Shown piece after piece: positions 4,563 to 32,512 of a stretch of DNA of 64,000 nt. The DNA comes from an uncultured Gammaproteobacteria bacterium. Its GTDB lineage: Bacteria; Pseudomonadota; Gammaproteobacteria; Francisellales; CACEW01. Below the pieces are notes generated by a model. It searched no databases and was not told the origin of the DNA. It saw only the letters and a program-made list of their open reading frames with translations. The translations under genes were made by a program, and so were the position numbers. How positions within the stretch are numbered: the stretch's first letter is position 1; every line of letters starts with the position of its first letter. Location: positions 160-64,159 of the forward strand of contig CAZIIK010000050.1 of the NCBI GenBank assembly GCA_964539235.1. The letters are read 5' to 3'.

Positions 4563-4676
4563 GGCAAAAGCACTGCGCCCTCTATTCATTAAGGCCGGGG
4601 AGTATAACGCAAAATGACCAGGCCGGAAATTACGCCGACCGGCTAATTTTATCTATGATACCTCTGCACAATTCGA

Positions 4677-5159
4677 TTATTGGCGGCGTTTAGAAACCAG
4701 ACGCTCATCAAGCTCAAACGATAAAGGTACTGCTGTTGCTAATATAGCCTGACTACGTGGATGGACTGGATTAAGCACATAATTCCATTCTCTAGGCACA
4801 ATAACACTGGGAACTGCCAATACAGGACTTTCTTGAGCATGCAACCAATCATCCCCCAACGAAGCTGTCTCTGGTGGTGCTTCTGGTTCTCGCCAAGTGG
4901 TTGGTAAATGATTACGCTTCAAATAGATAATATCTTCTTGAGGTAAGGTTAGACGCAGCAGCCGATAATGCTGTAGCAACGGGTAGTGATCCAGATGAAC
5001 TAAAATTTCTAAAAGCGCCAAAGATTCTGAACCAGCAATATATAGGCAAGCTTTACCTTTACTATTCCAACGACCACCATAACGTTTGGCACCATCACCA
5101 CTGAGCGCTGTGTCCAGCCATTTTGCTTTGACCAAACGATAAGCACTGAGCGCTTTCAA
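4677..5159 (-). CDS. RES-domain toxin (NAD+-targeting toxin family)
   Basis: 160 aa with a RES-like pattern (RYGGRWNS, GSESLALLEILVH). Its start overlaps the upstream antitoxin stop by 4 nt. Confidence 0.85.
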   Translation of the reverse strand: MKALSAYRLVKAKWLDTALSGDGAKRYGGRWNSKGKACLYIAGSESLALLEILVHLDHYPLLQHYRLLRLTLPQEDIIYLKRNHLPTTWREPEAPPETASLGDDWLHAQESPVLAVPSVIVPREWNYVLNPVHPRSQAILATAVPLSFELDERLVSKRRQ

Positions 5160-5590
5160 GAGAAAACCCCATGCTCCAAACGTCCTACCAGATCTAATAC
5201 TGCTTCCATTTCAGCTGAAGTAGCCAGCATATCAATAGGACGACGATGACCTAATCCCTGTACCGGCTTGTTTAACCAAGCCCGAGTGGCAAGCTTGTCA
5301 CCTTCAAACAGCTCCTCAGCTGCTTTATATAGCCGAGCATAGCGATATAATTTATCACTTTCTTGCGCGGTAAATCGTTTACCTTTACGACGCTGCAAAG
5401 ACGCAGGTGAAATCGTAATGACTTCCGCAAATTTTTTTTTATCGAGCCCAGACAAGTCGGCCAATGTATTAAACACCGTATATGGGAGTCCCTCGTGCAG
5501 TAATTGATAAAGCTCTGGGCCACGCGATGGCATACCAACAGTTTCCCAGAAACTGCGACGCCTTGCCATATTTTGCTGCAATGTACGCAT
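5156..5590 (-). CDS. Xre/DUF2384-type antitoxin partner of the RES toxin
   Basis: 144 aa. The C-terminal part (RRPIDMLATSAEMEAVLDLVGRLEHGVF) resembles the DUF2384 antitoxin domain. It sits immediately upstream of the RES gene and overlaps it. Confidence 0.8.
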   Translation of the reverse strand: MRTLQQNMARRRSFWETVGMPSRGPELYQLLHEGLPYTVFNTLADLSGLDKKKFAEVITISPASLQRRKGKRFTAQESDKLYRYARLYKAAEELFEGDKLATRAWLNKPVQGLGHRRPIDMLATSAEMEAVLDLVGRLEHGVFS

Positions 5591-5616
5591 TTGAATTCCT
5601 CAATTGATACATCTTG

Positions 5617-5625
5617 ATTATATCA
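5617..5625 (-). promoter_or_regulatory. Extended -10 (TGATATAAT) for the TA operon
   Basis: The minus strand reads TGATATAAT about 27 nt upstream of the antitoxin ATG. It lies inside a TGATA...TATCA inverted repeat, and GAGGAA is a plausible RBS. Confidence 0.35.
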
Positions 5626-5630
5626 GGTGA

Positions 5631-5978
5631 TCAGCTTATTTCAACTTCATCCAACAAACACGCCTCAGGATACAGCAGCCGACCCTCTGCAAAATGCACC
5701 CCTTCTGTAGCCAATAGCTGAAGCTTTTTCTCTAGCGTAGCGCCTACTTGCTCACCCTGGAAACCACCCAAGGTTAAATCAGATGCAATCACACGATGAC
5801 AAGGTACTTCCGGTGCAAAAGGATTACGCCGCAGTGCTTGGCCAACTGCCTGCGCAGAGCGACAATCAATCGCTCGTGCCAAACAGGCATAAGTAGTCAC
5901 TTTACCGCGCGGCACCTGCATTAAAGCCTGATAAACGCGTTGTTGGAAAGCACTTACAGTAGCAAATTTATCATACAT
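5631..5978 (-). CDS. MGMT-family methylated-DNA--protein-cysteine methyltransferase (single domain)
   Basis: 115 aa with the active-site motif VPCHRVI and a helix-turn-wing region (TTYACLARAI). Confidence 0.8.
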   Translation of the reverse strand: MYDKFATVSAFQQRVYQALMQVPRGKVTTYACLARAIDCRSAQAVGQALRRNPFAPEVPCHRVIASDLTLGGFQGEQVGATLEKKLQLLATEGVHFAEGRLLYPEACLLDEVEIS

Positions 5979-6054
5979 TACATTACCTCCAGCCGTGGCA
6001 TATGACTGTACCGTTTGAGCACCTGACTCAAGCGTATGGGCGCACTCAATTCTG

Positions 6055-6468
6055 TCATGACAAATGTTCTGCAGCGTAACGTTTAATCGCTTTCAGCATC
6101 TCATACAACCCATTACGACGCGTTGGACTTAAATGCGCCTCAAAACCAATTTCGCCGAGAAAATCTGGTGACAAAGCCGCAATGTCTTGAGCTGACTGAC
6201 CACTGTATACCGCAAATAAAACCGCCATCAGACCTGACACGATCGCGGAATCACTGACACCAGAGAAATGCAAACAACCATCGCGGAACGAACAATCCAT
6301 CCACACCTGAGATTGGCAACCACGAATCAGGTATTGCTCGATCTGCTTCTCAACTGGAAAACTCAAAGTTTTACCCATACTAATCAGCATTTGATAACGC
6401 TCAGTCCAATCATCAAAAAAGCCAAATCGCTCAATAATTTCTGCCTGGGCCGCCTGGATGGAAGTCAT
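6055..6468 (-). CDS. sufE: SufE/CsdE-family sulfur acceptor protein
   Basis: 137 aa with IRGCQSQVWMD around the conserved Cys and a SufE-like C-terminus (LSPTRRNGLYEMLKAIK). Confidence 0.8.
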   Translation of the reverse strand: MTSIQAAQAEIIERFGFFDDWTERYQMLISMGKTLSFPVEKQIEQYLIRGCQSQVWMDCSFRDGCLHFSGVSDSAIVSGLMAVLFAVYSGQSAQDIAALSPDFLGEIGFEAHLSPTRRNGLYEMLKAIKRYAAEHLS

Positions 6469-6582
6469 GGGAGATGCTCATAAAATACAACGGCCTGAAT
6501 ATACCGAGGTTAGACAGTGTCGTCACGAGTTTTTTCGGTGTGGAAATGCGACAACTTAAAACTTGTCTTCAAACTATGAGAG

Positions 6583-6738
6583 TCTGTCGTCAAATTGCTT
6601 ACCTGTAGCGAAAAAGGTGGAAGTTTAGAACAAATGAATTCAAATTTGCGTCGAATAGCAGGGACTATTGGGCAATAATTTGAATTCATTTGGGCAAATT
6701 CAACATCTTTTGCAGCCAGGAGAGTAATTTGACGACAG
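6583..6738. repeat. Long nested imperfect palindrome (MITE-like or structured RNA)
   Basis: Outer arms TCTGTCGTCAAATT (6583-6596) and AATTTGACGACAGA (6725-6738). Inner arms AAATGAATTCAAATT (6632-6646) and AATTTGAATTCATTT (6677-6691). Apical arms AATAG (6654-6658) and CTATT (6665-6669). Confidence 0.6.
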
Positions 6739-6747
6739 ATTCTAATC

Positions 6748-7653
6748 TCAAGCGAAAAAATTTTCACCGGTCAGGCGTTCAAAAATATCGATATAGCGTG
6801 CACTGAGTGTTAACACCAGTTCTTCAGGTGCTGCTGGCAAAACTTCATCTTGGTAAGGATCACAGTGCTCGCGATACCACAAACGCAGCATTTCCTTATC
6901 AAAATTATCGGGTTCTTGGCCGTTGGCCATCAGTTCAGCATACGTCTCGGCCAACCAATACCGACTCGAATCTTGAGTATGACACTCATCAACCAGAATA
7001 ATGTCGCCATGTTCATCAACACCAAATTCATACTTAGTATCAACCAAAGTCAATCCGGCTTGCTGTGCCTTTTGTTGACCAAACGCGAATAGCGCCAAGG
7101 CTTTCTCTGCGATAAAGGTCCACTGGTCTGGCGTAATACCGCCCAGTGCTGCCAAACGCTCAGTTGTTAAGGGCTCATCATGATCTTCTGCTTTGGTAGA
7201 CGGCGTTAAAATTGCCTGCGGCAATGCTGTATTTTTCTGCAACCCATCAGGCAATGTCGTTTCAAAGAACCGACGTTCCCCTTGTTGGTACAACTGCCAA
7301 ATCGATGTGCTGGTGGTCCCGGTCATATAGCCGCGCACCACGACTTCTATGGGAAAAACTCGGCATTTTTTAACCCGCGTTTGATTCGGTGCCGGCACGG
7401 CCAATAAATGATTCGGGATGATATGCCGTGTCTGCTCAAACCACCACACACTGGTACGATTCAGCGCCTCACCTTTGAAAGGAATCTGGGCAATATTACG
7501 GTCGAAAGCACTCAAACGATCTGTGGTGACCAGCAACAGACTGTCGCCGCAATCATAACGATCGCGCACTTTTCCTCGATACTTCGGGTAAGGCAAATCA
7601 GTTTCAACAATGCAATGAGTTAGCGCTTCGCGAATCCGCGGCAAAATAGTCAT
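6748..7653 (-). CDS. purC: Phosphoribosylaminoimidazole-succinocarboxamide synthase (long form)
   Basis: 301 aa. Contains YRGKVRD, LLLVTTDRLSAFD and TKYEFG, which are SAICAR synthase-like motifs. Confidence 0.9.
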   Translation of the reverse strand: MTILPRIREALTHCIVETDLPYPKYRGKVRDRYDCGDSLLLVTTDRLSAFDRNIAQIPFKGEALNRTSVWWFEQTRHIIPNHLLAVPAPNQTRVKKCRVFPIEVVVRGYMTGTTSTSIWQLYQQGERRFFETTLPDGLQKNTALPQAILTPSTKAEDHDEPLTTERLAALGGITPDQWTFIAEKALALFAFGQQKAQQAGLTLVDTKYEFGVDEHGDIILVDECHTQDSSRYWLAETYAELMANGQEPDNFDKEMLRLWYREHCDPYQDEVLPAAPEELVLTLSARYIDIFERLTGENFFA

Positions 7654-18501: not shown

Positions 18502-18673
18502 GCGACAATACTCATCGTCAAGGGTTAAAAATGGACGCGCATGATAGCGAATTCCGTGGAAATGCGCAAAATTAGACCAGAAAATGGCGAGCGCCCGCTG
18601 TTAAATGGCTGACCTGAAACGAAAAAAGCCGGGTTGTTGAGTGATGGACTATAAACGGAAGAACTAAGTTAAC

Positions 18674-18775
18674 CGGCGTTTTATCTATATCTCCTTCGAA
18701 ACGCCGTTAATGCATCCCTGCAGGCTGACACTGCGACCTCCTGTCGCAGAGCCTTCTCAGGAGATATAGCTAAAA
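18674..18775. repeat. Nested, mutually exclusive inverted repeats (candidate structured RNA or MITE remnant)
   Basis: CGGCGTTT (18674-18681) pairs with AAACGCCG (18699-18706). CTATATCTCC (18685-18694) pairs with GGAGATATAG (18760-18769), with flanking extension. An apical hairpin runs GGCT..CTGCGAC-ctcct-GTCGCAGAGCC (18723-18753). Confidence 0.5.
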
Positions 18776-18895
18776 CACTTTGAACGGCATTGCCGCCCCA
18801 GCAGCTTTCAAAATAACCGAAATTTACATTTTTAGTATTTTTAACGGAATTTATAATAGAATTAGTCCATTAATGGATTGTTTTGGAAGTAGAAC

Positions 18896-19534
18896 ATGTA
18901 TGTCTGCAGAGTTTGGACAATCGGAAGAGATGGCAAACCAAATTTTTACATAGGCGATGACAAGGCTAAAATTGATAAGGCACAAGCTAGGGCCTATCAG
19001 GATGCAGGTAAAAACTCTTATCCACAGCACCATGACGCAATCACTCATATCGTGTGGATTGGAGGCACTATGCCGAGTGAAGGCGATACAGAAACCTTAT
19101 ATTCCGTACCCGCTTTAACACTTAATGCAAAAGATATTCGGCCTAAAGCATGTGCGCGTATTCGAGAAGACCTGGCCCAAACTATTGCAAAATTATTTGC
19201 AGAAGAGCGCATATATACTTCCCAATGCTCTGTCATCATTAACACAGTAATCGTTGCCAATGTGGCTACGGCAATTGAATGTATTCAGGGCATGCTAAAG
19301 AAAGGCCTTATAATTGAGATAACACCCTGTAATGTTTATCGGTATCTTACATATCTTTCATCTTCATCAGAATCAAGCAATCCATTTCGACTCACGTTTT
19401 TTGAGTATGCGAAAGCATTAAAAGATCAAAACGCACGACGATACTCAGATCGATATGGAATTGAATCGAAGAAAGACTCAGAGCAGCCAGTTGAAATAGA
19501 AATGTCGCTAATGGGTGATAGTCGACCTGATTAA
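18896..19534 (+). CDS. Hypothetical protein (orphan ORF, AT-rich by eye)
   Basis: 212-aa ORF with no motif I recognise. Its composition looks lower in GC than its neighbours. It contains a perfect TTATCCACA at 19018-19026. Confidence 0.4.
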   Translation: MYVCRVWTIGRDGKPNFYIGDDKAKIDKAQARAYQDAGKNSYPQHHDAITHIVWIGGTMPSEGDTETLYSVPALTLNAKDIRPKACARIREDLAQTIAKLFAEERIYTSQCSVIINTVIVANVATAIECIQGMLKKGLIIEITPCNVYRYLTYLSSSSESSNPFRLTFFEYAKALKDQNARRYSDRYGIESKKDSEQPVEIEMSLMGDSRPD

Positions 19535-19692
19535 ATCAACAACTGCCTTGCCATCCAACACTATCTTTAAAACATTTGCATATTCGGTTTGACCTGGATG
19601 GAACACGATGCCTAATATTCACTTGATATCAAAAGCATCTACTGGCATAAGTGATCAAATAATATCCTTTTAATGATCGGAGCGCCGTAACC

Positions 19693-20351: not shown

Positions 20352-20429
20352 ACATGCCAAACCCGTTAGACAATGCCCGGGCAAATGTCTATCATACGCA
20401 CAATTCTCCTTCTGCCTGGGTTTTATCCT

Positions 20430-23400
20430 ATGAAACACTCCATTAAAAAAGTCTTACTCCTCGGTTCTGGCGGCTTACGCATTAGCCAAGCAGGTGAGTT
20501 TGATTATTCCGGCTCACAAGCGATTAAAGCCCTAAAAGAAGAAGGTATCACCGTTATTTTGGTGAATCCGAACATCGCAACGATTCAGACTGATCCGGAC
20601 ATGGCGGACAAGGTCTACTTGCAACCGTTGAACAAGCCCACTGTCACCGAGATCATCCGCACCGAACGTCCTGACGCCGTACTGCTAGGTTTTGGTGGAC
20701 AAACGGCCTTGAATTTAGGTTTAGCATTGGAAGACGATGGCGTTTTCAAAAAATACAACGTTGCCGTCCTGGGCACAGATACACAAGCGATTCGTTTGTC
20801 TGAAGACCGTAAATTATTTAAAGAAGAACTCGACAAAATCGGCGTCTGCACTGCCAAGAGTTTTGGTGTTTCCACCGTAGAAGATGCGATCATTGCTGGC
20901 CGCGAAGTCGGCTACCCTTTAATGATGCGCTGTGCTTTTTCACTTGGCGGTTTGGGCTCTGGCATTGTCGACGACGAAGCCACACTGAGATCACGTGTCA
21001 CTGAAGCGTTGAGCGTCGCGCCTCAAGTGTTGATCGAAGAAAACATGATCGGCTGGAGTGAGTTTGAATACGAAATCGTGCGTGATGCTGCTGGCAACGC
21101 ATTAACCGTGTGTAACATGGAAAACTTCGACCCCATGGGCATTCACACCGGTGAAAGTATTGTCGTTTCACCTTCGCAGTCACTGACCAACCGCGAATAC
21201 CACATGCTGCGCGAAGTGGCGATTAAGGTCGCTAATCACTTTAATATTATTGGTGAGTGCAATATTCAATACGGTTTCAACTTAAAAACCAGCGAATACC
21301 GGGTCATTGAAATCAATCCCCGACTGTCGCGTTCCAGTGCTCTGGCTTCTAAAGCCACCGGTTACCCACTTGCCTTTGTCGCGACAAAATTGGCCTTGGG
21401 CTACAAGCTGCATGAACTGAAAAACAGCATCACCAAAAAGACCTGTGCTTACTTTGAACCTGCGTTGGATTATGTCGTAGTTAAAATTCCGCGTTGGGAT
21501 ATTCAAAAGCTGAAAGGCGCTGAACGCCGCATCGGCACGGAAATGAAAAGTGTTGGTGAAGTCATGGCCATTGGCCGCAGCTTTCCAGAAGCCTTGCAAA
21601 AAGCCATTGGCATGTTGAACATCGGCGCCACAGGTTTGTTGGATTACCCATACGAAATTCCAGATTTGGAAGCAGAAATTGCCCAAGCGACTGACCGCCG
21701 TATTTTCGCCTTACACCGTTTCTTTGTGGCAGGCGGCACGGTCGAAAAAGCTGCTGAACTATCCTGCATCGACCCGTGGTTCTTGCACCACATGTATGCC
21801 ATTGCAGATACTGAGCGCCAACTGAAAAAACACAAATTATCCGCTGACTTACTGCACCATGCGAAGAAAATGGGCTTTTCTGACCGCATCATCGGCCAAT
21901 TGATTAAAAAAGATGAAAACTTTGTCCGCGAACGTCGTTTGGCAGATGGCATTACACCAATGGTCAAACAAATCGATACCCTGGCTGGCGAATTCGACGC
22001 ACAAACGAATTATCTTTACCTCACGTACCACGGATGTGAGCACGATGTGGCGCCGGCGGAACAGCCGTTAAGCATTATACTTGGCTCAGGCCCATACAGC
22101 ATCGGCTCTTCAGTGGAATTTGACTGGTGTGGCGTGACCACAGCGAGAACCTTGAAAAAACTCGGCAAAGGTTCTGCCATTATCAACTCCAATCCGGAAA
22201 CAGTGTCAACCGACTACGATGAGTCAGACCGCCTGTACTTCGAACAACTTACCCTGGAACGGGTACGTGATATCGCAGATTTCGAAAACCAGGATGGCAT
22301 TGTGGTGTCCATGGGCGGACAGATTGCCAACAACTTGGTGCCACATTTGACTGCACATGGCTATCCAATTTTAGGGACTTCACCAGAGAATATTGAACGT
22401 GCGGAAAACCGCGAAAAATTCTCCTCCATGTTGAATGACCTCGACGTTGACCAGCCTGAATGGATCGCTGCCGAGACTTTGAGCAAAGCGAAAAAATTTG
22501 CCAATCGTGTCGGTTATCCAGTATTGATTCGTCCTTCCTTTGTTTTGTCTGGCGCCGCAATGAATGTGGTATTTTCCGAAACCGAAATGGAAAAATACCT
22601 GGCGGAAGCCTCTATGGTATCACCTGACCACCCCGTGGTGATTTCTGACTTTATTCAAGATGCGAAAGAATTAGAAATTGATGGTGTTGCACAGAACGGT
22701 CAAATCGAAATTTATGCCATTTCGGAACACGTGGAAAATGCCGGTGTGCATTCCGGAGATGCCACCATCGTGTTACCACCGCAGCGACTCTATCTAGAAA
22801 CCATCCGCCGTGCCAAACACATCACGCGTAAGATCGTGTCTGAGCTGGATATCTCAGGTCCGTTTAATATCCAATTCATCGCCAAAGATGACGACATTAA
22901 GGTGATCGAGTGTAATGTCCGTGCATCACGCTCTTTCCCATTCGTGTCTAAAGTCACCGGTCACAACTTTATCGATATTGCTGCCCGCGTATTGCTGAAT
23001 TGTTATCAATCACAACATTACAACACTCTAGACCTCGACCATGTTGGCGTGAAAACACCACAATTTTCTTACAGCCGTCTGAAAGGCGCGAACCCGGTGG
23101 CCCATGTTGAAATGGCGTCGACGGGTGAAGTCGCCTGTATCGGCGATGACCTATTAGATGCGTTTTACCGCTCTTGGCAAGCAACAGAACAACAGGTATT
23201 GCGCAAGAAAATTTTTGTCAGCATCAGTTCGAATAAAAAACCACGCTTATTGGAGGCGTTACAACATTTAGATGAATTGGGTTGGGAAATTTACACCACC
23301 GAAGGCACTCATGATTACCTCGCTAAGATGGGTGTGAGTTCACGTTGCGTCTTTAAAGCCAGCACGCAAAATACACCGAATGTTGCCGATATGATTCGCG

Positions 23401-23603
23401 AGCAACAGGTTGATTTGATTGTGAATATTCCAAGCAGCCGCGCCAGCAGCAGCCAAGTCACCGATGGTTTTACCATTCGACGCCTGGCGATTGACCATCA
23501 CATTCCGCTGATCACTAATCTACAGATTGCACAAGTCGCGTTGCATTGTTTAGCCGAATTGCATGATCGGCCGACCACAGTAAAGGCTTGGCAAGAGTTT
23601 TAG
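20430..23603 (+). CDS. carB: Carbamoyl-phosphate synthase large subunit (no adjacent small subunit)
   Basis: About 1057 aa from the ATG at 20430 ([31 protein letters not shown]). It has two ATP-grasp halves and a C-terminal MGS-like domain. The track start at 20373 is rejected. Confidence 0.9.
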   Translation: [1057 protein letters not shown]

Positions 23604-23818
23604 TCTGAGACCAGACCTAAAACTGGCTTTATTCTGCTGTGACTGTACAGTTCTCCTAAGTTCCTTATCTGTTAAGTATCACTGAAGTTATGAAACAGCC
23701 TTTATAATTGCAAATGCGCAACATTGAGAAACAAAAAAATGTTGTGCAACACATTTTTATTGACAATAGTTGCGCGTTTAGTATCGTTGCATTCTCGCGA
23801 TTAACTTGGAGAAAGATC

Positions 23819-25051
23819 ATGCAATGGGACGCTTTGGGGTTTAGCGATAATCCATTTAATACCGACCCAATTCGGCAAAAGACATTAGATTTATACATTG
23901 GTCGTGATAAAAATGTTGGCATTTGTAAAAATGTCCTAGCAGAAAAAAATGTGTTACTCATCATTGAAGGCGCACGAGGGATAGGCACCACGTCATTTGG
24001 CAACTACCTGAGATTTAATTCACAGGCACAGAAAAAATATTTCACGCCGTCAAATGAAATTAGAGTGGGAGCCGGTTGGAATATTGAGACTTTATTGGCT
24101 GTCATCGTTGGCAATATCGTGCGTGAACTTGATATCTTTCAATCAGCGCTTGTTGCAAACAATAAAAAATTTCAAGATGCCAAGGCGCTCACGATGCGCA
24201 TTGCTGAAACATACCGTTCCTTTGGTATTGATGCATTAGGCTTTGGGGTAAATTATGGGAAGAACGCAGGAATTTCTTTTCAACCCAGTATTGTGCCGGC
24301 AGCGATTTTAGGGCATCACCTTGAGGATTTAGCTAATTTAGTGCAATCCCTTGGTTATGAATTCGGTATTTTGCTGCAATTAAATAATTTGGATGTTGGT
24401 GCTATACATGAAGCAAAACACTCAAAGTACTTATTTAATGAACTGAGAGACTATATTCAAACTGATTTAGTCAGTTGGATGTTGGTTGGCGATATTGGCT
24501 TACGGAAATTTATTGCGCAACAAGTTGATCGGTTAGATGATATTGTTAGTTACGAAGTGAGAATTGATGCTTTATCAAAGCAAGAGTTTCTAAATCTAAT
24601 TGATCAACGTGTCAGTTTCTACAAAACACATAAAAATGCAGAACTGCCAATTGATAGAGCCGTCTTTTTGCATCTTTTTAAAATAACTAAGGGCAGGCTG
24701 CGCTATGTGTTCGGACTTCTTAAACGGCTGCTTAACGAGTTAAGTATTGGGGACCTGACAGATCGCTTAACGCTTGATATTGCAAAGCCTATGGTGACAA
24801 GGTTGACACAGGAAAGAATTGTACAATATGACATTACCCCAAAAGAATTAAGTCTATTACAAATGATTGTAAAAGCAGGCTATGGTAATGCGAGTAAGCT
24901 TTCTGCCAAATTGGGGCAATCTCGCCAGGCCATATCAAGAGCATTGGTCAATTTGCTGGAGATAAAACTGTTGCATGTCCAACAATCAGGCCGGGATAGA
25001 ACTTATTATCCTGTGCTTGAAGCAGAAATAGCCTACTTAAGTCAGGAGTAG
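23819..25051 (+). CDS. ORC/Cdc6- or ExeA-like P-loop NTPase with a C-terminal winged-helix domain; degenerate Walker A
   Basis: ATG at 23819 preceded by GGAGAA. N-terminus FSDNPFNTDP. The P-loop reads GARGIGTTS, with Thr where the Walker lysine is expected. The C-terminus is MarR-like wHTH (ASKLSAKLGQSRQAISRALVNLLEIKLL). The gene looks AT-rich. Confidence 0.7.
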   Translation: MQWDALGFSDNPFNTDPIRQKTLDLYIGRDKNVGICKNVLAEKNVLLIIEGARGIGTTSFGNYLRFNSQAQKKYFTPSNEIRVGAGWNIETLLAVIVGNIVRELDIFQSALVANNKKFQDAKALTMRIAETYRSFGIDALGFGVNYGKNAGISFQPSIVPAAILGHHLEDLANLVQSLGYEFGILLQLNNLDVGAIHEAKHSKYLFNELRDYIQTDLVSWMLVGDIGLRKFIAQQVDRLDDIVSYEVRIDALSKQEFLNLIDQRVSFYKTHKNAELPIDRAVFLHLFKITKGRLRYVFGLLKRLLNELSIGDLTDRLTLDIAKPMVTRLTQERIVQYDITPKELSLLQMIVKAGYGNASKLSAKLGQSRQAISRALVNLLEIKLLHVQQSGRDRTYYPVLEAEIAYLSQE

Positions 25052-25161
25052 TGGAATTTTCAGCAGAGCGTTATGGTTTGAGAACCGGTTTTTGAAATCT
25101 TGCATGTCGAAACCGTAATTTTTTGTTGGTTCACTCCCATTGGTCCAAGCGCTAGGCAAAA

Positions 25162-26515
25162 TTAATCTGAGATCTGTAAGAGCCGCTGCAACTGCTCAAT
25201 CAAATAAAATGGAATCGACGACAGCTGATATTTGGCGACTTGCCCATCATGTAGTTTGACCGCAACCGGCACCTGACTCGGCAGATCAGCATTAACCCTG
25301 ACAGCATGAGGTAGTTGTTTTAGATGCATGAACAGATGCAATGATTTTAAACTGCCGGTTGCACCTGACTTCACCTCAATCGGCACGATTTGACCACCAG
25401 ATGCCCAAACATAATCTAATTCCGCATTAGCACTTTTATTTTCACGCGCCCAGTAATAGGTCTGTGGTGCTTGATACAGTGGTTGGCTGGCGCGCAATAA
25501 CTGACCGACAATTTGTTCAGAAATAGCACCTTGGTTAATCAGATTAATGTCACCGATTTGATTGACTTCATGTAATTGCAATCCGAGCAAAGCCGAGGTC
25601 ATGCCCACATCTAACAGCCCAACTTTAAATCGCTTAGCATTGGCTTCTGCCATTAATGGCACACCATTTGCCGCAGTTGCAACGGCTTTGTAACACACAC
25701 GTGCCTGGCACAGTAAACCTAAGGCTGCTTTCAGTTTGGTTGACTGTAAATCTCGTGCGACCTGGCTGTAAACAAACTTACCACCCAAAAGACGGGGCAC
25801 AGCCTGCCATACCGCGTCTAAATATTGCGTATCAATTCTCGGGGTGTATTTGACAAAGTCATCCCGATAAGCCATACGCAAATCACTCTGTATACGAGCA
25901 ACTTCTGCCAGCGCATCGGTATTGACCCAAGTCGCCACAGCTTCTGGCATACCACCCACAATCAGATACTCGCGGAATAAATCCAACAACTTATGGTGCA
26001 CGGGCAAAGCAACAGGGGTTGTGAAATCCATCTGTTGTATAAACGCTAACAAGACCGTTTCATTTTTGGCCAACAAAAATTCTTCAAAAGATAAGGGTTC
26101 GATATAGCAAAAAGATACGCGCCCGACCGGCATGCTGAACTGATGGTCACCTAAGGTAAAGTCCAACAAAGATCCTGCCGCGACGACTGCAAGCTCTGGC
26201 ATATCTTCATAAAACCATCGCAATTTTGCCAATACATCCGGAAATGCTTGCGACTCATCCAAAAATAATAAGGTCTGCTCAGGTTGCAAGGTTTGCTGCT
26301 GCGCTAAACCGATATCACGCAGAATGACTTGCACATCATTGGTGTGGAAAAACTGCTTGTGCGCTGGAAACTTCTCAAAGTTCAATTCAACTAATTGCTT
26401 ACCACTGGACTCCACCAAATGACGCACCAACCTGACGGGCACCGCGCATAATCATCGGCTTGCGAGCTGAATTCTGCAGCCACTGCTGCAAATATTGAGA
26501 GGCATAACGTTGCAT
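25162..26515 (-). pseudogene. DUF4143-type AAA ATPase/PD-(D/E)xK protein, frameshifted in the P-loop
   Basis: An N-terminal fragment from ATG 26515 (MQRYASQYLQQWLQNSARKPMIMRGARQVGAS..) stops at 26399. The main ORF (25162-26442) is in another frame and lacks a Walker A. Walker B is LLFLDESQ and the tail is ELDYV...IPIEVKSG. Confidence 0.75.
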
Positions 26516-26564
26516 GGCTGCATCCTCTGAATGCACATATTTCAGACTAATATAGCACAATTAA

Positions 26565-26619
26565 CAAAAAGACCCTTGTGTTTTTGTAACAAACCATCAA
26601 AAACACAAGGGTCTTTTTT
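26565..26619 (-). terminator. Strong rho-independent terminator after argH
   Basis: A ~19-bp perfect stem, AAAAGACCCTTGTGTTTTT / AAAAACACAAGGGTCTTTT, with a 13-nt loop and flanking A/T runs. It starts 5 nt after the argH stop. Confidence 0.8.
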
Positions 26620-26623
26620 ATTT

Positions 26624-28000
26624 TTATGTCTGATTTAGTCGCTCCTGTGCGTAGGTAAGTTGCTGTAAAACGGCTTGTTTTGCCGTGCCACCCCGCACGC
26701 AGCGGGCTTCGACAGCATGCTCTGGCACTAAAGCCGTATAAACATCTGCAGCGAATAATTCACTGTGTGTCTGCAGCGTATGTAATGGCAGATCCACCAG
26801 TAACTGTTGCTGCTGAATACACTGCATCACCAACTGACCTGTCACTTCGTGAGCTTGACGAAAAGGCATGCCTTTTTTCACCAAGTAATCTGCCAATTCA
26901 GTGGCATTGGAAAAATCTTGCGTCACTGCTTGGCGCATATTCTCTACGCGCACTTTCAGCGTTGCTAACATGGGCGCAAATAAATCTAATGAACCATGCA
27001 AAGTCGTTAAGGTATCGAATATCCCTTCTTTATCTTCTTGCATGTCTTTGTTGTAGGCCAAAGGCAATCCCTTGAGCACAGTTAAAATACCGATTAACGC
27101 ACCGTAAACACGACCAGTTTTACCCCGCACCAATTCTGGCACATCTGGGTTTTTCTTCTGCGGCATCATGCTGCTGCCAGTACAATATGCGTCATCTAAT
27201 TCAATGAAACTAAATTCTTTACTGCACCACAGCACCAACTCTTCACTCAATCGTGACAAATGGGTCATGATTAAAGCCGCATGTGAAAGGAGCTCCACCA
27301 CGAAATCTCGATCACTGACCGCATCCAGACTGTTTTCATACACCGCTGAGAAATCCAAGGCTTCTGCCACACTAACGCGATCAAATGCGAAACCTGCACC
27401 CGCTAACGCACCGGCGCCCAGTGGGCAAACATTAATGCGTTTTAAACTATCGGTCAGGCGATCGATATCACGCTGAAACATCCAAAAATAAGCCAATAGA
27501 TGATGTGCCAGCCGCACGGGTTGAGCACGTTGTAAATGCGTATAGCCAGGCAATATGGTGTCGACATGCTCACTGGCTTGCGTGACCAAAGCCTGCTGCA
27601 CAGCTTTAAGTTTTTGCACCATACTTTCAACATGCAGGCGTAAATACAGATGCATATCGGTGGCCACTTGGTCATTACGACTGCGACCCGTATGCAATTT
27701 ACCAGCCAATGCACCAATTTCTTCATGCAGCAAACGTTCAATATTCATGTGAATATCTTCATCAGCCACTTGAAACGTGACTTCATCTGCTGCAATGCGT
27801 TGCTGAATGGCATGCAGACCGGCAACAATGGTGTCGCATTCTTCATCGGTCAGCACATCGCATTGCAACAACAACTGCGCATGCGCCACACTACCTTGGA
27901 TGTCGACCATGGCTAACTCATGATCAAAATGAATCGACGCGGTGAATTCATCGACTAACTGGTCAGTTGGTTTGGTAAAACGGCCACCCCAAAGTTTCAT
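26624..28000 (-). CDS. argH: Argininosuccinate lyase
   Basis: 458 aa: [18 protein letters not shown] and the signature [12 protein letters not shown]. Confidence 0.95.
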
Positions 28001-28070
28001 GTTTTGTTATCCTTTTTTCATGTAGGCCTTTATCTAAATTTTGCTAAAAACCAAACCCTTTAATAGGCTT

Positions 28071-28192
28071 GACTTCGACAAAAGGTTCCTGTCCTTCGAC
28101 CAAAGGCTCCTGAGCTTGTCGAAGGACAGTCAGCGAAAATTAGGTCCATGAGCCTGTCGAAGGGACCATCTTTCGGAGGCTCAGGGAACGGC
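28071..28192. repeat. Cluster of REP-like hairpin units (core CCTTCGAC / GTCGAAGG)
   Basis: Perfect 12-bp hairpin CTGTCCTTCGAC (28089-28100) / GTCGAAGGACAG (28118-28129). It is flanked by the two halves of a second unit (28073-28086 and 28142-28164), which match the copy at 57921-57955. Confidence 0.6.
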
Positions 28193-29385
28193 TACTGATT
28201 CACCATTTTATAAACCTGTAACGGCAACCCCCACAACTTAATAAAACCTTCTGCCGCAGCATGATCAAACTGATCATCGGGTTTATAGGTCGCTAATTCA
28301 AATTGGTATAACGATTGCTCAGACTTACGGCCAGTCACCACGGCTTGTCCTTTATGTAGTTTGACGCGCACCACACCAGAAACAGTTTTCTGCGTCTCGG
28401 CAATAAACTGTTTCACCACATCTGTGAGGGGGGAATACCACATCGCTTCATAAATGAGTTCCGCTAACTTCTGCTCCATCACCGGCTTAAAATGCATCAT
28501 TTCCCGCGGCATGGTTAAGGCTTCCAAAGCTTTATGCGCCTTGATCAACGTCATCGCGGCAGGTGCTTCGTAGACCTCACGCGACTTGATGCCAACCAAA
28601 CGGTTTTCAATATGATCGATACGACCGACACCATGTTGACCAGCCACCTGGTTTAGGGTTTCAATCAGCGTCACAAATGGCATGGCTTCACCATTTAATG
28701 CCACTGGCTTACCGTGTTGAAAGGTAATTTCAATCTCTTCTGCCGTATCCGGTGTATCAGCAATAGCACTCGTCCATTCATAAGCCGCTTCGGGTGGTGC
28801 TGCCCAAGGATCCTCTAGCACACCACATTCGCAACTTCTGCCCCACAGGTTTTGGTCGATGCTAAACGGGTTATCGAGATTGATCGGCAAGGGAATAACG
28901 TGTTCGTTGGCATAAGCAATCGCATCTTCACGTGCCATTGGCGCTTCACGTACAGGTGCTACAATTTTCAGATCAGGATTCAACGCATGAATCGATACAT
29001 CAAACCGTACTTGGTCATTGCCTTTACCGGTACAACCATGCGCGACAGCCACCGCACCAGTTTGCTGAGCGATATCGACCAGCACCTTCGAAATCAAAGG
29101 CCGTGATAAAGCTGAAACTAACGGATATACCCCTTCATATAAGGCATTGCCCTGCAAAGCTGGTAGTAGATATTCTTCTGCAAAAACTTTCTTCACATCG
29201 ACGATATGACACTCAACTGCGCCAACGTCTAAGGCCTTTTGCTTGATAAAATCGAGATCTTTACCTTCGCCAACATCCATCGCGGCGGCCACCACGTCGT
29301 AACCATATTTATCTTGCAACCATTTAATGGCGATGGAGGTATCTAAACCACCGGAATATGCCAATACAATTTTATCTTTTGCCAT
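28192..29385 (-). CDS. argG: Argininosuccinate synthase
   Basis: A start at 29385 gives [17 protein letters not shown]. Also [14 protein letters not shown]. The track start at 29412 is rejected. Confidence 0.95.
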
Positions 29386-29399
29386 GTTTTTTCTCCCTT

Positions 29400-30260
29400 T
29401 TATTTGGTACACAGCGTGCCAACACCGGCTTCTGTGAAAATCTCTTCAATTAATACATGAGGTCGTTTGGCACCCAAAATATGGATATTGTTCACGCCAC
29501 GACGCAGCGCTTTGAGAATGGTATTCACTTTGGTCAGCATGCCACCGACCACAATTTCTTCGTCAATCAACAACTGTAATTTAGCAGCATTACAAACCGA
29601 CAGCGGTTCATCTGCCTGGTAGATACCGGCCTGATCCGTCAAATAAATTAATTTCTCCACCCCGAGCTCAGCTGCTAAGCAACAGGCAGCCCAATCAGCA
29701 TTCACATTGACTGCTTGACCATTTTTCATCACTCCAATGGGTGACACAACCGGAATAAACGCAGCCTGATCATCGGCTTGCTGCATCTGCATGAAATGAC
29801 GCAATAAATCTAAGTTGACCTGTGAAATTTCACCCACTAGACCCAGTTCTGCGGACACCAAATCACATTGCAACATTTGTTGGTCAACACCGGATAATCC
29901 AATCGCGGGAACTGCCAGAGCATTTAAACGTTTCACCAACATTTTATTGACCTGACCACTCAACACCATCTCGATAACATCCATCATATCGGGTGTCGTA
30001 ACCCGCTGACCTTGGTGAAATTGCCATGACAAATTATAGGTCGACAAAGCCGATTCAATAGCTTTGCTCCCCCCATGCACAATGACAATGGCAATCCCTG
30101 CCGCACGGAGTAATTTAAGGTCTTGGCAAAGACTTTCGACTAGGGCGGGCTCATCCAAGATTGAACCCCCCATTTTGATCAAAATACTTTTACCTTGAAA
30201 TTGCTGCACATATTGCAGTGCTTGTAATAGTAAGTCGGTCTGTTGTACCTGCATGTTCAA
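29400..30260 (-). CDS. argB: Acetylglutamate kinase
   Basis: 286 aa with [15 protein letters not shown] and other amino-acid-kinase fold motifs. Confidence 0.9.
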
Positions 30261-30263
30261 TCC

Positions 30264-31463
30264 TTAACTGACGTATTCCGCATTGATTTTGACGTAGCGT
30301 TCCGATAAATCGCAGCCCCATGCCGTTGCCATCTGTTCACCCGCATGCATATCAACTTCCAACACAACAGTATCTTGTTGCATTAATTGCTTCAGTTTTG
30401 CTGCATCGACAGCTTGCGGTTGTTCCGCAGAAAATAGCGTCATGCCTTGGAAACGCAATGAGACTTGTTGCAAAATTTCCACGGGCACCTGTTCTGCACC
30501 GAGACGCCCAATAAAACGGCCCCAATTAGGCGACTCGCCATAAATCGCTGTTTTAATCAGTGGGCTCATGGTCAAGCCACGCGCGACTTGCTGAGCCAAA
30601 GCCAAGGTGGGCGAATTTTTCACCTGTGCTTCAATTAACTTGGTTGCGCCTTCACCATCACGCGCAATGCTTTTGGCCAAAACAATGGCTACCTCTTGTA
30701 AAGCTGCCCAGAAAATTTCTTGGTCGGCTGAAGTGGCCAGCGACACGCCACTGGCACCGTTTGCTAATAGAAAAACACTATCATTCGTCGAAGTATCACC
30801 ATCGACACTGATCATATTAAAGCTGTGATCAGTCACCGCTTTTAAACCGTGTGCAGCTGCTGCAGTATCTAAAGCCACATCAGTCAGCAAGTAGCCCAAC
30901 ATAGTTGCCATATTGGGATGAATCATGCCCGAGCCTTTTGCGACACCGGTAATACAGACTTCACCTTGCGATAAGGTGATTTTTTTCATCACCGTTTTGG
31001 GCACGAGATCTGTTGTCATCACTGCCAAGGCAAACTTCTCGGCAATGTCACTGGTACTTTGACAGAGCTCCGGCACTGCCGCCGTTATTTTGTCAACCTC
31101 CATTGGTTCGCCAATCACGCCGGTCGAAGCAGACAATACCTGATGAGTTTCGCATTGCAATTGCTGGGCAACCGCGGTAACCATTGCCTGATTATCCAGC
31201 TCACCTTGAGGACCTGTTGCCGCATTGGCCTGACCACTGTTGGTGATCACCGCGCGGATGTTATCCGCTGGCAGCAATGCCTGTGAATACCGGACGGGCG
31301 CTGCTTGGCAGGTGCTTTGGGTAAAGACACCGGCAGCCACAGCAGGCACTTGCGAAATCACAATGCCCAAATCAGGCCGATAACGTCGCACACCACAGTT
31401 CACACCAGCTGCGACAAACCCCTGTGGCAATTGGGTTCTAAAAATTCCTGCACCTGGCGTCAT
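30264..31463 (-). CDS. argJ: Bifunctional ornithine acetyltransferase/N-acetylglutamate synthase
   Basis: 399 aa with the ArgJ autoprocessing region (GMIHPNMATMLGYLLTD) and the C-terminus INAEYVS. Confidence 0.9.
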   Translation of the reverse strand: MTPGAGIFRTQLPQGFVAAGVNCGVRRYRPDLGIVISQVPAVAAGVFTQSTCQAAPVRYSQALLPADNIRAVITNSGQANAATGPQGELDNQAMVTAVAQQLQCETHQVLSASTGVIGEPMEVDKITAAVPELCQSTSDIAEKFALAVMTTDLVPKTVMKKITLSQGEVCITGVAKGSGMIHPNMATMLGYLLTDVALDTAAAAHGLKAVTDHSFNMISVDGDTSTNDSVFLLANGASGVSLATSADQEIFWAALQEVAIVLAKSIARDGEGATKLIEAQVKNSPTLALAQQVARGLTMSPLIKTAIYGESPNWGRFIGRLGAEQVPVEILQQVSLRFQGMTLFSAEQPQAVDAAKLKQLMQQDTVVLEVDMHAGEQMATAWGCDLSERYVKINAEYVS

Positions 31464-32512
31464 ACCACCTCCCCAGGCAAAAGCCCTAAACTGACCGGCC
31501 AGTCATAGTAACGATTTAAATTCTCAATCGCTTGTGAAGCCGCGCCTTTATGCAAATTATCAATAAAACAAAATACTTGAACCCCATGCGCATCAACTGT
31601 GTACACCAGGTGCGTCATCGGTGTGCCCACCACCGACTTCAAATGCAATAACTGCGGCGCTTGCTGTTCAGCCTGTAACAACGGCATCTGTGTCACCAAT
31701 GGATAGTCTTGATAGGCTTGGGTGAATGCTTGTTCCACATCTTGTGCAGTCACACCCGCCTTGAGCCGAGCATACGCTGTCATAGCAATGCCTTGCTGCG
31801 TGGGCAAAATTTGCGTGGTTAATTTGGGTGCTACCGTTTGCCCAGTCACACCGGCAATAGCGTGGGTAATTTCCGGTGTATGCTGATGACGACCCACTTT
31901 GTACGGATAAAAATCACCGGCCACTTCGGCAAATAGCATATGACGTTTTGCTGAGCGGCCCGCACCTGTCACACCGGATTTACCATCCAGAATTAGACTA
32001 TCGACATGCATCAAAGGCACCACAGGTAAAACCGCCATCAATGCGGCCGTGGCATAACACCCCGGATTGGCAATTAACTGCGTCGGTTTTGCAGACTGCC
32101 AAGGTGATAAACCGTAATGAGCTTCATCTAAGAAGCCTGGCGCTTGATGTGTAAAACCGTACCATTCTGGATGCGCAGCTTCCGGCAAACGAAACCCACC
32201 ACTCAAATCAATCGTCAACACGCCGGCAGCCAAACAAATAGGTACCCATTCAATTGAAACATTGGCCGGCGTTGCCAAAAACACCACATCCAAACTGGAT
32301 AAATGCTGTGGAAAATCTTCCACTGAAAAGGTTGGCACGCGCTGAGCCTTGGGGTGTATGAGGTCGTGACCTAACTGCCAATCATCCTGACGAGCAAAAA
32401 CAGTCGCTAACTCAACCTGGGGGTGATCAAGCAGATAGCTTGCCAATGTCAGGCCACTGTAGCCCTGCGTGCCAATTATTGCGATTCTCTTTTTCAACGA
32501 TTTATACTGCAT
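31460..32512 (-). CDS. argC: N-acetyl-gamma-glutamyl-phosphate reductase
   Basis: 350 aa with an NAD-binding N-terminus (IAIIGTQGYSG) and the active-site segment ANPGCYATA. Confidence 0.9.
   Translation of the reverse strand: MQYKSLKKRIAIIGTQGYSGLTLASYLLDHPQVELATVFARQDDWQLGHDLIHPKAQRVPTFSVEDFPQHLSSLDVVFLATPANVSIEWVPICLAAGVLTIDLSGGFRLPEAAHPEWYGFTHQAPGFLDEAHYGLSPWQSAKPTQLIANPGCYATAALMAVLPVVPLMHVDSLILDGKSGVTGAGRSAKRHMLFAEVAGDFYPYKVGRHQHTPEITHAIAGVTGQTVAPKLTTQILPTQQGIAMTAYARLKAGVTAQDVEQAFTQAYQDYPLVTQMPLLQAEQQAPQLLHLKSVVGTPMTHLVYTVDAHGVQVFCFIDNLHKGAASQAIENLNRYYDWPVSLGLLPGEVV

Follow-up and report, generated by a model that had tools for sequence, protein, structure and literature searches.

A lysine-less ORC/Cdc6-like AAA+ protein with a winged helix: a probable self-repressing DNA binder from the cargo arm of a Tn3-family transposon

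Introduction

What is left for an ATPase fold to do once its catalytic residues have been replaced, and why is such a protein kept? The question is raised by a single gene (23819–25051, plus strand) within a stretch of 64,000 nucleotides from an uncultured Gammaproteobacteria bacterium (assembly GCA_964539235.1, contig CAZIIK010000050.1), which as a whole is called the window below. The gene encodes a protein of 410 residues in which an ORC/Cdc6-like AAA+ module is joined to a C-terminal winged helix, as indicated by its open reading frame (ORF), its homologues, an AlphaFold2 model and Foldseek searches. An initial annotation had described an AT-rich insert carrying this one gene between carB and a DUF4143 pseudogene, and had recognized in the product an ORC/ExeA-like NTPase with a lysine-less P-loop and a MarR-like winged helix. 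It had also noted repeated half-sites upstream, suggested a regulator or sensor rather than an enzyme and pointed out that orphan ORC/Cdc6-like proteins recur in defence and mobile islands. All of this except the link to defence has been borne out, and three results go beyond it: the lysine is lost throughout the family, Asn-Asn in Walker B is shared across the superfamily, and the insert corresponds to a Tn3-family transposon's cargo arm.

To date, the protein is named either 'MarR family regulator' or hypothetical in databases. Neither Pfam nor NCBIfam holds a model for the family, and its only annotation is MarR-like, a label behind which an ORC/Cdc6-like AAA+ module of 330 residues disappears. 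It is probable, in our view, that the protein is a non-hydrolysing, self-repressing ORC-like DNA binder, and that its gene came in by way of a Tn3-family transposon, whose cargo arm it represents.

A Fixed P-Loop Without Lysine

Translation starts from the ATG at 23819, which GGAGA precedes at a distance of seven bases. An alternative, longer ORF would begin at the TTG at 23708; the N-termini of the homologues all read MQW, indicating that the ATG at 23819 is used. As the initial annotation had it, this is the sole plus-strand ORF between the stop codons of carB (23603) and of the DUF4143 gene (25162), and its frame is intact. The lead-in motifs GFSDNPFNTDP and IGRD, too, are present in the protein exactly as they had been quoted. 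Homologues were sought among 5.8 billion proteins, and more than 416 relatives were obtained; the best 120 of these are nearly all full-length (about 407–442 residues) and 54–92% identical. The more than 400 family sequences belong mainly to Legionellales, Coxiellaceae, Francisellaceae and uncultured gammaproteobacteria related to them, and a single genome can hold as many as four paralogues. One contig of 2.9 Mb, CAVQDV010000005.1, carries four family copies, and most copies are located on large chromosomal contigs.

The P-loop, G51-A-R-G-I-G-T57-T-S59 (23969–23995, plus strand), reads GARGIGTTS and departs from the Walker A consensus GxxGxGK[ST], Thr57 being aligned exactly with the lysine of GKT-bearing relatives. 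The Walker B equivalent, ILLQLNNLD (residues 184–192; 24368–24394, plus strand), lies on strand beta3 and likewise departs from its consensus, hhhhDE, with LLQLNN, in which N189 and N190 replace Asp-Glu. In an alignment of 24 family sequences (54–92% identity), ten of the thirteen positions from E50 to N62 are invariant (E50, G51, R53, G54, G56, T57, T58, S59, F60 and N62), which makes the P-loop the most conserved stretch of the protein. Q187, N189, N190 and D192 are invariant in the same alignment, as are D237/R238/D240/D241 and G292/R293/L294/R295/Y296. Threonine occupies the position of the Walker A lysine in 120 of 120 homologues among the matches listed; close homologues that keep GKT, which would have spoken for simple decay, were not found there. 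Pairwise ratios of non-synonymous to synonymous substitution (dN/dS) among six close copies are 0.03–0.08. Given this invariance and this ratio, the lysine-less P-loop is a fixed, selected feature, and the degenerate motifs pointed out by the initial annotation are confirmed residue by residue.

These data bear directly on the idea that the lysine loss is a recent lesion in a copy that is becoming a pseudogene. Degenerate Walker A and B motifs would fit such a lesion, and some family copies are indeed truncated or frameshifted (the second copy of L057, and those of L048, L077 and L080). However, the frame in the window is intact, the same substitutions recur throughout the listed homologues, and the P-loop is conserved above everything else under a low dN/dS; decay is refuted by these facts and keeps a negligible probability. 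As a separate observation, diverged paralogue pairs (about 53–55% identical) occur 4–6 kb apart in several genomes, namely at 4612–5844 and 10001–11242 of L252, at 1542–2771 and 8001–9233 of L002, and at 6001–7218 and 11144–12362 of L057, where the second copy is the frameshifted one. Taken with the truncated copies, they point to birth-and-death turnover of the family.

A wider view was obtained by an unbiased scan of 1.8 billion representatives with a hidden Markov model (HMM), which returned 746 relatives at E values up to 1e-3. The distant relatives are full-length, 19–27% identical, and have the same N-terminal motif and a C-terminal winged helix-turn-helix (wHTH); most of them keep GKT yet share the pattern hhhhNN(L/I)(D/E). 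Among 150 representatives of this superfamily, the Walker A position is Lys in 91, Thr in 23, Leu in one and Ala in one, and at the Walker B equivalent 77 have NN, 20 DN, two EN and one DD. In an alignment of 65 superfamily members N190 is invariant and R295 nearly so. Since the wider superfamily has the Asn-Asn Walker B but mostly keeps GKT, the loss of lysine is derived. The catalytic glutamate is already missing from the superfamily as a whole.

By motif comparison, LLQLNNLD may correspond to vvLDEiD of ORC proteins, DRLDD to box VII and GRLRY to GDAR. Both R238 (in DRLDD, before strand 5) and R295 (in GRLRY, at the start of a lid helix) are conserved and fall within the stretch that is profile-aligned to the structures 8g28 and 2qby_A. 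With Lys replaced by Thr in Walker A and Asp-Glu by Asn-Asn in Walker B, and both changes fixed, canonical ATP hydrolysis should be impossible. Strong conservation extends over the P-loop, R238 (arginine-finger-like) and R295 (sensor-2-like), and the pocket therefore probably keeps a non-catalytic role. The family is a natural experiment on an initiator-type AAA+ fold after the removal of catalysis, with the pocket under strong selection and GKT-bearing cousins at hand for comparison.

Besides the pocket, a glycine-rich loop (FGIDALGFGVNYGKNAGISFQP, residues 136–156; about 24224–24286 of the window) is highly conserved, and its GxGxG core is found superfamily-wide. Its central part (139–152) is the only long stretch of the structural model with low confidence, the predicted local distance difference test (pLDDT) score being below 50. 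The window copy has Phe in this loop where most homologues have Ser. The loop may contact DNA or a partner.

Fold, Winged Helix and Superfamily

The AlphaFold2 model built from the family alignment (pLDDT 86.7; predicted template-modelling score, pTM, 0.82) has a three-domain plan of AAA+ base, helical lid and C-terminal winged helix. In the base, a strand (46–51) leads into the P-loop and its helix, a helical insert (89–134) follows strand 2, the strand 184–189 ends in N189-N190 and a further strand spans 218–224. R238 is placed in the loop before strand 245–249, and G292–R295 opens a lid helix. Foldseek comparison with the PDB ranked archaeal Orc1/Cdc6 first (1w5t, 2qby and 2v1u; E about 1e-9, full length), the top seven matches all being Orc1/Cdc6 chains (E 1e-9 to 2e-8, template-modelling score about 0.45–0.5). 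The archaeal ATPase PAB2304, Apaf-1, RuvB, TnsC and RFC were found lower in the list, and a comparison with viral structures gave generic clamp-loader or AAA+ matches only.

Profile searches lead to the same neighbourhood of proteins. From strand 4/box VII through the lid to sensor 2, the superfamily profile matches 8g28 ('ATPase, AAA family') with E 1e-9 and Orc1-1 (2qby_A) with E 1e-4. The 65 superfamily members give sub-threshold Pfam matches to AAA_16 (36), AAA_22 (28), nSTAND1 (20), KAP (19) and ATPase_2 (13), and sub-threshold NCBIfam matches to the ExeA-like PEP-CTERM ATPase (17), orc1/cdc6 (eight, all far below the cut-off of TIGR02928) and the RFC small subunit (four). The assignment as an ORC/ExeA-like NTPase is supported by these matches, and we conclude that the protein belongs to a lysine-less clade that is derived within an AAA+ superfamily of ORC/Cdc6-ExeA type, as yet without a name. 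The genomic contexts of two GKT-bearing relatives were variable and uninformative. Another GKT-bearing distant relative, P0261, matches the NCBIfam model for the anti-phage protein DS-41 (NF053860) over residues 166–406 with E 2.7e-5, a hint that the validated defence gene DS-41 may belong to the same wider superfamily.

The C-terminal MarR/ArsR-like wHTH comprises residues 337–399 (24827–25015, plus strand) and is modelled with helices 341–353, 358–365 and 369–381 and a wing at 385–398. The third of these is the recognition helix (24923–24961, plus strand). A single-sequence PDB search with the window protein found the wHTH only, and the family profile matches ArsR/SmtB/MarR structures. With these profiles and the model, the MarR-like domain of the initial annotation is supported, even though Pfam MarR_2 scores 22.6 bits (residues 337–394) against a gathering cut-off of 27. 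The protein nevertheless exceeds the size of MarR/ArsR repressors (about 100–180 residues), since residues 1–335 form the AAA+ module.

Palindrome Arrays at the Promoter

Evidence for what the winged helix may recognize comes from the DNA directly upstream. The control region (23688–23818, plus strand) extends from the left edge of DNA homology with other copies of the cassette to the start codon. It contains a sigma-70-type promoter at 23760–23787 (plus strand; TTGACA, a 16-nt spacer and TATCGT, 10/12 in a consensus scan) and three sites related to the palindrome GTTGCGCAAC. Site 1 (TGCGCAAC, 23715–23722, plus strand) is the right half of this palindrome. Site 2 (GTTGTGCAAC, 23741–23750, plus strand) is a 10-bp palindrome with one mismatch to the consensus GTTGCGCAAC; it lies directly 5' of the −35 element, inside a 24-bp near-palindrome (23735–23758), and its centre is 28 bp from that of site 1. 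Site 3 (GTTGCGC, 23769–23775, plus strand) is the left half and sits in the promoter spacer. Between −35 and −10 is a classic position for a repressor site.

When six cassettes (72–86% DNA identity) are aligned, the upstream region proves diverged save for the islands GCGCAAC (23716–23722, invariant), GTTG(C/T)GCAAC and TTGACAA..GTTGCG (23760–23774). TTGACA is invariant in six of six, as is GTTGCG of site 3, and the palindrome at site 2 is perfect in five of six. The upstream half-sites of the initial annotation are accordingly conserved as three sites in otherwise diverged DNA.

Similar arrays accompany the family at large. Most members have two to six copies of a 10–12-bp palindrome of their own at −20 to −105, spaced by 18–19 bp; examples from different clades are GGTTAATTAACC, TGTGAATTCACA, ATCAATTGAT, GATACGTATC, GTGATATCAC, ATGACGTCAT and TGTTATATAACA. 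Of 69 upstream regions, 30% contain a perfect 10-bp palindrome twice or more, compared with 1% of shuffled sequences and 0% within the gene. The palindrome changes together with the recognition helix: SRQA(I/V)SRAL goes with GTTGCGCAAC, NRT(F/Y)xSKL with GATACGTATC, SxSxISHxL with ATCAATTGAT, xSYISNIL with GTGATATCAC and S(K/R)PYISK with GGTTAATTAACC. The four paralogues on the 2.9-Mb contig have four different palindromes. A single operator for the whole family was considered and rejected, the operators being clade-specific. Within loci of 10–20 kb, the palindromes are nearly confined to the 5' region of each family member's own gene.

This comparative evidence from sites and helices, which we regard as strong, suggests that the protein binds its own promoter as a sequence-specific dimer and regulates itself. 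Such co-varying operator arrays also make a regulator rather than an enzyme, as initially suggested, the best-supported reading of the protein. In addition, the clade-specific arrays provide ready, testable pairs of protein and DNA specificity. The 28-bp spacing in the window exceeds the 18 bp usual elsewhere by roughly a single turn of the helix, and the angular offset between neighbouring dimers would thereby be kept.

Two further occurrences of operator-like sequences were recorded. A near-perfect copy, ATTGCGCAAC, lies within the coding sequence at 24512–24521 and is absent from the other close cassettes. In locus L051, two more perfect copies of GATACGTATC, 18 bp apart, are situated directly 3' of the family gene (6001–7230) at 7274–7301, in a convergent gap before a gene for a repeat-rich protein of 1938 residues, so that arrays flank the family gene on both sides.

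The same layout could be taken for a replicon module, in which the protein would be an initiator or a copy-control or incompatibility factor and the upstream array an origin, as with orc1/cdc6 and origin recognition boxes or rep and iterons. An ORC/Cdc6-like fold encoded next to two to six regularly spaced cognate sites resembles the arrangement of archaeal origins and initiators, and paralogues of one genome differ in site specificity as if to avoid incompatibility. Two close copies are found beside a resolvase, each on a contig of roughly 31 kb, one of which also carries genes for a MobA/MobL relaxase and TraD. Against this, the catalytic residues are dead, only about 115–130 bp are conserved upstream, and the DNA between the sites is neither conserved nor AT-rich in the other cassettes; in the cassette alignment no conserved AT-rich unwinding element was seen at the array, and 23500–25200 holds no DnaA box. 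The family is absent from 72,556 PLSDB plasmids, 50,697 phage records and IMG/VR. Its copies lie mostly on large chromosomal contigs (up to 2.9 Mb), and no circular contig was among the fetched loci; a scan of unannotated ORFs on plasmid-like contigs for Rep domains was uninformative. A role in replication is thus quite improbable.

A Tn3-Family Cargo Arm

How the gene came to lie behind carB can be read from other copies of the same DNA. A unit of 1.46 kb (about 23688–25148) recurs at 79–90% DNA identity in at least five unrelated contexts. Homology with the close cassettes begins at 23688–23714 and mostly ends at 25146–25148, though it ends earlier (25035–25080) in L002/L003, L004 and L252. 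For L001/L011, L166, L251 and L002, blastn places its start at 23688–23703. The neighbours are a dGTPase and RecF-like gene on one side and a MoeB-like gene on the other in L001 and L011 (Cysteiniphilum halobium), an unknown gene of 682 codons and DUF4143 in L002 and L003, CTP synthase in L004, an amino-acid permease and an MFS transporter in L252, a serine resolvase in L166, L167 and L251, and carB and the DUF4143 pseudogene in the window.

Composition supports this mobility. The gene has a guanine-plus-cytosine (GC) content of 0.393 and a third-position content (GC3) of 0.36, the lowest GC among the 43 long ORFs of the window (mean GC 0.476, standard deviation 0.029; mean GC3 0.452, standard deviation 0.045), in agreement with the AT-rich insert first seen by eye. 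In the close clade GC is 0.39–0.42 in the cassettes but varies between 0.345 and 0.458 in their flanks, the cassette being accordingly AT-richer than the window host and GC-richer than C. halobium. Conserved synteny with normal composition, the other finding that would have spoken against an insert, is not what was observed: the neighbourhoods vary, and DNA of about 40% GC sits in hosts of 35–46%. With the C. halobium copy the protein shares 91% identity, whereas CarB, a slowly evolving enzyme, reaches at most 71–72% with any GTDB species representative.

The right edge of the cassette is a Tn3-family terminal inverted repeat (25052–25148, plus strand), made up of the terminal 40 bp or so and an inner conserved block. 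These 97 bp after the stop codon reappear inverted in L166, beyond the 3' end of a Tn3-family tnpA (DUF4158 and DDE_Tnp_Tn3); there, identity is 92.5% over the terminal 40 bp and 92.6% over an inner 27 bp. Two inverted copies in L166 delimit an element of 5.1 kb consisting of inverted repeat, tnpA, tnpR, an intergenic res region, the ORC-like gene (92% identical to that of the window) and inverted repeat. Its flanks read TATAT and TACCT, with no clean 5-bp target duplication. The gene tnpR also adjoins the family gene in L167 and L251, and distant family members adjoin fragments of Tn3-family tnpA/tnpR (L030, L081 and L085). In the 64-kb window, tblastn found neither tnpA nor tnpR, and a second inverted repeat, as expected at the left edge of a miniature Tn3-derived cassette, was not found. 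The window keeps only the cargo arm of the transposon, which begins where homology to the res side breaks off and extends as far as the outer end of the inverted repeat. We know of no description of an ORC-like protein as Tn3-family cargo. The link to this family explains the AT-rich single-gene islands in these genomes.

Other features of the edges were considered as well. The 3' hairpin at 25052–25148 was rejected as a terminator (fold z = −1.08 relative to shuffles, no terminator-like site in the scan) and reread as the inverted repeat. An 11-nt direct repeat, TTAGTCTGAGA / TTAATCTGAGA, lies at 23600–23610 and 25162–25172, exactly at the stop codons of carB and of the DUF4143 gene. As a target duplication it is doubtful, repeats of equal quality being found somewhere in the flanks in 22% of shuffles; it may be due to chance, though its placement is striking. 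Scans of the region against Rfam and for tRNA genes gave no match.

Association with a transposon invites the view that the protein is an accessory factor of transposition which, like TnsC, MuB or TniB, tunes target choice, immunity or the expression of tnpR/tnpA for its Tn3-family carrier. In L166, L167 and L251 the gene stands beside res and tnpR, within the inverted repeats of the 5.1-kb element, and TnsC is among the Foldseek and profile matches. In the vicinity of most copies, that of the window included, there is neither a transposase nor a resolvase nor a second inverted repeat, and yet these copies are under strong purifying selection; moreover, the conserved sites are in the gene's own promoter and not in the inverted repeat. 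To our knowledge, Tn3-family elements do not need an AAA+ helper. Such a role is very improbable.

Neighbouring Genes and the Question of Defence

Upstream of the insert, carB (20373–23603, plus strand) ends directly before it. Downstream, a minus-strand AAA_14/DUF4143 gene (25162–26442, together with about 26450–26570) is a pseudogene. Its N-terminus, MQRYASQYLQQWLQNSARKPMIMRGARQVG, ending in GARQVG, is encoded in another frame upstream of the GTG-initiated ORF, and a frameshift or short deletion at the junction has removed the residues after GARQVG, where intact homologues have GKT. The pseudogene matches the PADLOC candidate family PDC-S01 with E 1.6e-129. When 543 neighbouring ORFs of 72 loci were clustered all against all, no conserved partner gene emerged; the top cluster was AAA_14/DUF4143 itself, present within 5 kb of the family gene in 8 of the 72 loci including the window, in variable orientation and at variable distance.

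It might be supposed that the protein is an anti-phage or anti-plasmid sensor, an ORC/STAND-like switch whose fast-evolving winged helix recognizes the DNA of invaders and which then blocks this DNA, e.g., by coating or occluding it, the sites 5' of its own gene merely keeping expression low. ORC/Cdc6-clade ATPases and inactive ORC/STAND domains recur in BREX-type systems (PMC12839542), and the remote match of P0261 is to a validated anti-phage gene (DS-41; 10.1101/2025.01.08.631726). The rapid diversification of the recognition helix, the several paralogues of some genomes, the carriage by mobile elements and the candidate-defence DUF4143 genes nearby would also suit a sensor. However, the ATPase part matches no PADLOC model, PADLOC matches being confined to the wHTH, and neither an effector domain nor a conserved neighbour was found. 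Many copies lie amid housekeeping genes, the DUF4143 genes are placed irregularly, and the similarity to DS-41 amounts to 23 bits against a cut-off of 370 and falls outside the lysine-less clade. A sensor of invaders is therefore unlikely, and the defence-island link of the initial annotation was not upheld, its remaining leads being the proximity of DUF4143 and the distant DS-41.

The host itself appears isolated. Among 185,579 species representatives the closest CarB proteins are 71–72% identical (Cysteiniphilum sp. 19S12-1 and Caedibacter taeniospiralis), followed by Chlamydiales metagenome-assembled genomes at 67%, and the genomes nearest by CarB share none of the neighbouring genes of the window. 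The source organism (47% GC) seems to belong to a Francisellaceae/Fastidiosibacteraceae-like lineage that has no close sequenced relative in this set. Two other parts of the window are also unusual. The cluster argH-argG-argB with downstream genes (26624–32512, minus strand) has an ArgH nearest to those of Paenibacillus, Bacillus and other Firmicutes (at most 66%), and the 80 best species representatives include no gammaproteobacterial homologue; the arginine cluster, too, may be foreign. A second AT-rich patch (18600–19600, GC about 0.39–0.41) contains an orphan ORF of 212 codons (18896–19534, plus strand; GC 0.408, GC3 0.319) without significant Pfam match, which could be another acquired gene.

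A Working Model

The sequence, its conservation, the fold, the site arrays and the mobility are established, and a mechanism can be proposed on this basis. Dimers of the winged helix would bind palindromes of the GTTGCGCAAC type, of which three, with the 28-bp spacing, are placed partly 5' of the gene's sigma-70 promoter and partly within it, and their occupancy would repress transcription. Binding at the array may be cooperative, probably through the AAA+ module. The retained pocket might bind a ligand or nucleotide as a switch or serve as an oligomer interface. The transcription unit arrived horizontally as a Tn3-family cargo arm, bounded at one end by the res-proximal edge and at the other by the terminal inverted repeat. 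A precedent for an Orc1/Cdc6 homologue acting as a transcription regulator is known from the virus SNJ2 (PMC10123103). If it is true that the pocket binds a ligand, the family would constitute a new class of bacterial signal-responsive repressor.

Several points weigh against this self-repressing DNA binder. DNA binding to the sites, autorepression and loss of ATPase activity are all inferred, and the assignment of arginine finger and sensor 2 is based on motif and profile alignment rather than on a ligand-bound structure. The central site of the window copy carries a mismatch, and the co-variation of helix and operator is confounded by shared descent. In the 64-kb window GTTGCGCAAC is not enriched elsewhere (8 near-matches, with 4.5 expected, standard deviation 2.2), and no regulon is visible from this search; pure self-regulation leaves the retention of the gene unexplained. 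Matches of the window protein in Pfam, NCBIfam and PADLOC are to the wHTH only and all sub-threshold, with no ATPase family at a curated threshold. Some loci were retrieved with patterns containing TTS, so that the HMM scan and the counts of Lys and Thr are the unbiased part of the evidence for Thr57.

A more far-reaching version can be envisaged, in which the family is a bacterial counterpart of archaeal orc1/cdc6 with its repeat array, one that has lost hydrolysis, polymerizes on phased sites, rides on Tn3-family transposons and diversifies its specificity. Such a polymerizing module might be an origin, might act as a decoy for one, or might serve for silencing where mobile elements compete, and the conserved P-loop would have taken on the sensing of some ligand that is not Mg-ATP. 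We hold this version to be unlikely, and the simpler self-repressor remains the reading that we prefer.

Comparison With Known Systems

Archaeal Orc1/Cdc6 proteins are the best full-length structural match and share the helical insert after strand 2, the lid, the C-terminal DNA-binding winged helix and cognate repeated sites directly 5' of the gene. The window protein differs from them in being bacterial and transposon-borne, in its replacements of Lys by Thr and of Asp-Glu by Asn-Asn, and in scoring below the curated HMM threshold; its sites are short palindromes spaced by 18–28 bp inside a promoter. Comparison with iteron-plasmid Rep proteins reveals mainly differences, among them the missing PLSDB match, DnaA box and conserved AT-rich stretch. 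DnaA (domains III–IV) likewise pairs an AAA+ module with DNA binding at the C-terminus, occupies arrays of short sites in a cooperative manner and is a repressor of its own promoter, but it has a true GKT ATP switch, is essential at oriC, contains a different type of HTH and shows no close match in sequence or structure.

Among bacterial ORC/Cdc6-clade proteins, BrxD, a standalone ATPase, and the N-terminal ATPase and wHTH of BrxC in BREX systems have the strand-2 insert and the helical bundle in common with the present family as well as an arginine finger, to which its R238 may correspond, and the inactive 'iSTAND' domains of BrxB/PglW are Walker-less ORC/STAND modules retained as scaffolds (PMC12839542). 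BREX loci contain multiple genes, however, whereas this family is encoded by a lone gene, gives no match of its own in PADLOC or to BrxC_BrxD and conserves its P-loop rather than losing it. STAND NTPases (AAA_16, NACHT and NB-ARC) are unlike it as well: a repeat or sensor domain is missing here, the region of box VII and sensor 2 aligns to AAA+ structures, and the AAA_16 and nSTAND matches of the relatives (36 and 20 of 65) are mostly sub-threshold. ExeA/GspA-like AAA_22 proteins and PEP-CTERM ATPases (TIGR03015, matched below threshold by 17 of 65) share the N-terminal 'G(L/F)xxNPF ... GR' before the P-loop; they keep GKT, are without a MarR-like winged helix and have partners in secretion or exopolysaccharide production.

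With respect to context, the layout in L166, with cargo next to res, is that of a Tn3-family transposon, of which the window retains cargo and one inverted repeat while lacking tnpA, tnpR and the second repeat. MarR/ArsR autorepressors probably offer the functional parallel, a winged helix with its recognition helix and palindromic operators over its own promoter; here, though, no more than about the last 70 residues form the winged helix, and the other 330, ignored by annotation, are AAA+. A further parallel is Orf8 of the haloarchaeal virus SNJ2 (PMC10123103): although this archaeal Orc1/Cdc6 homologue belongs to a three-gene module and is an activator upon DNA damage, it too is an ORC-type protein that serves gene regulation on a mobile element.

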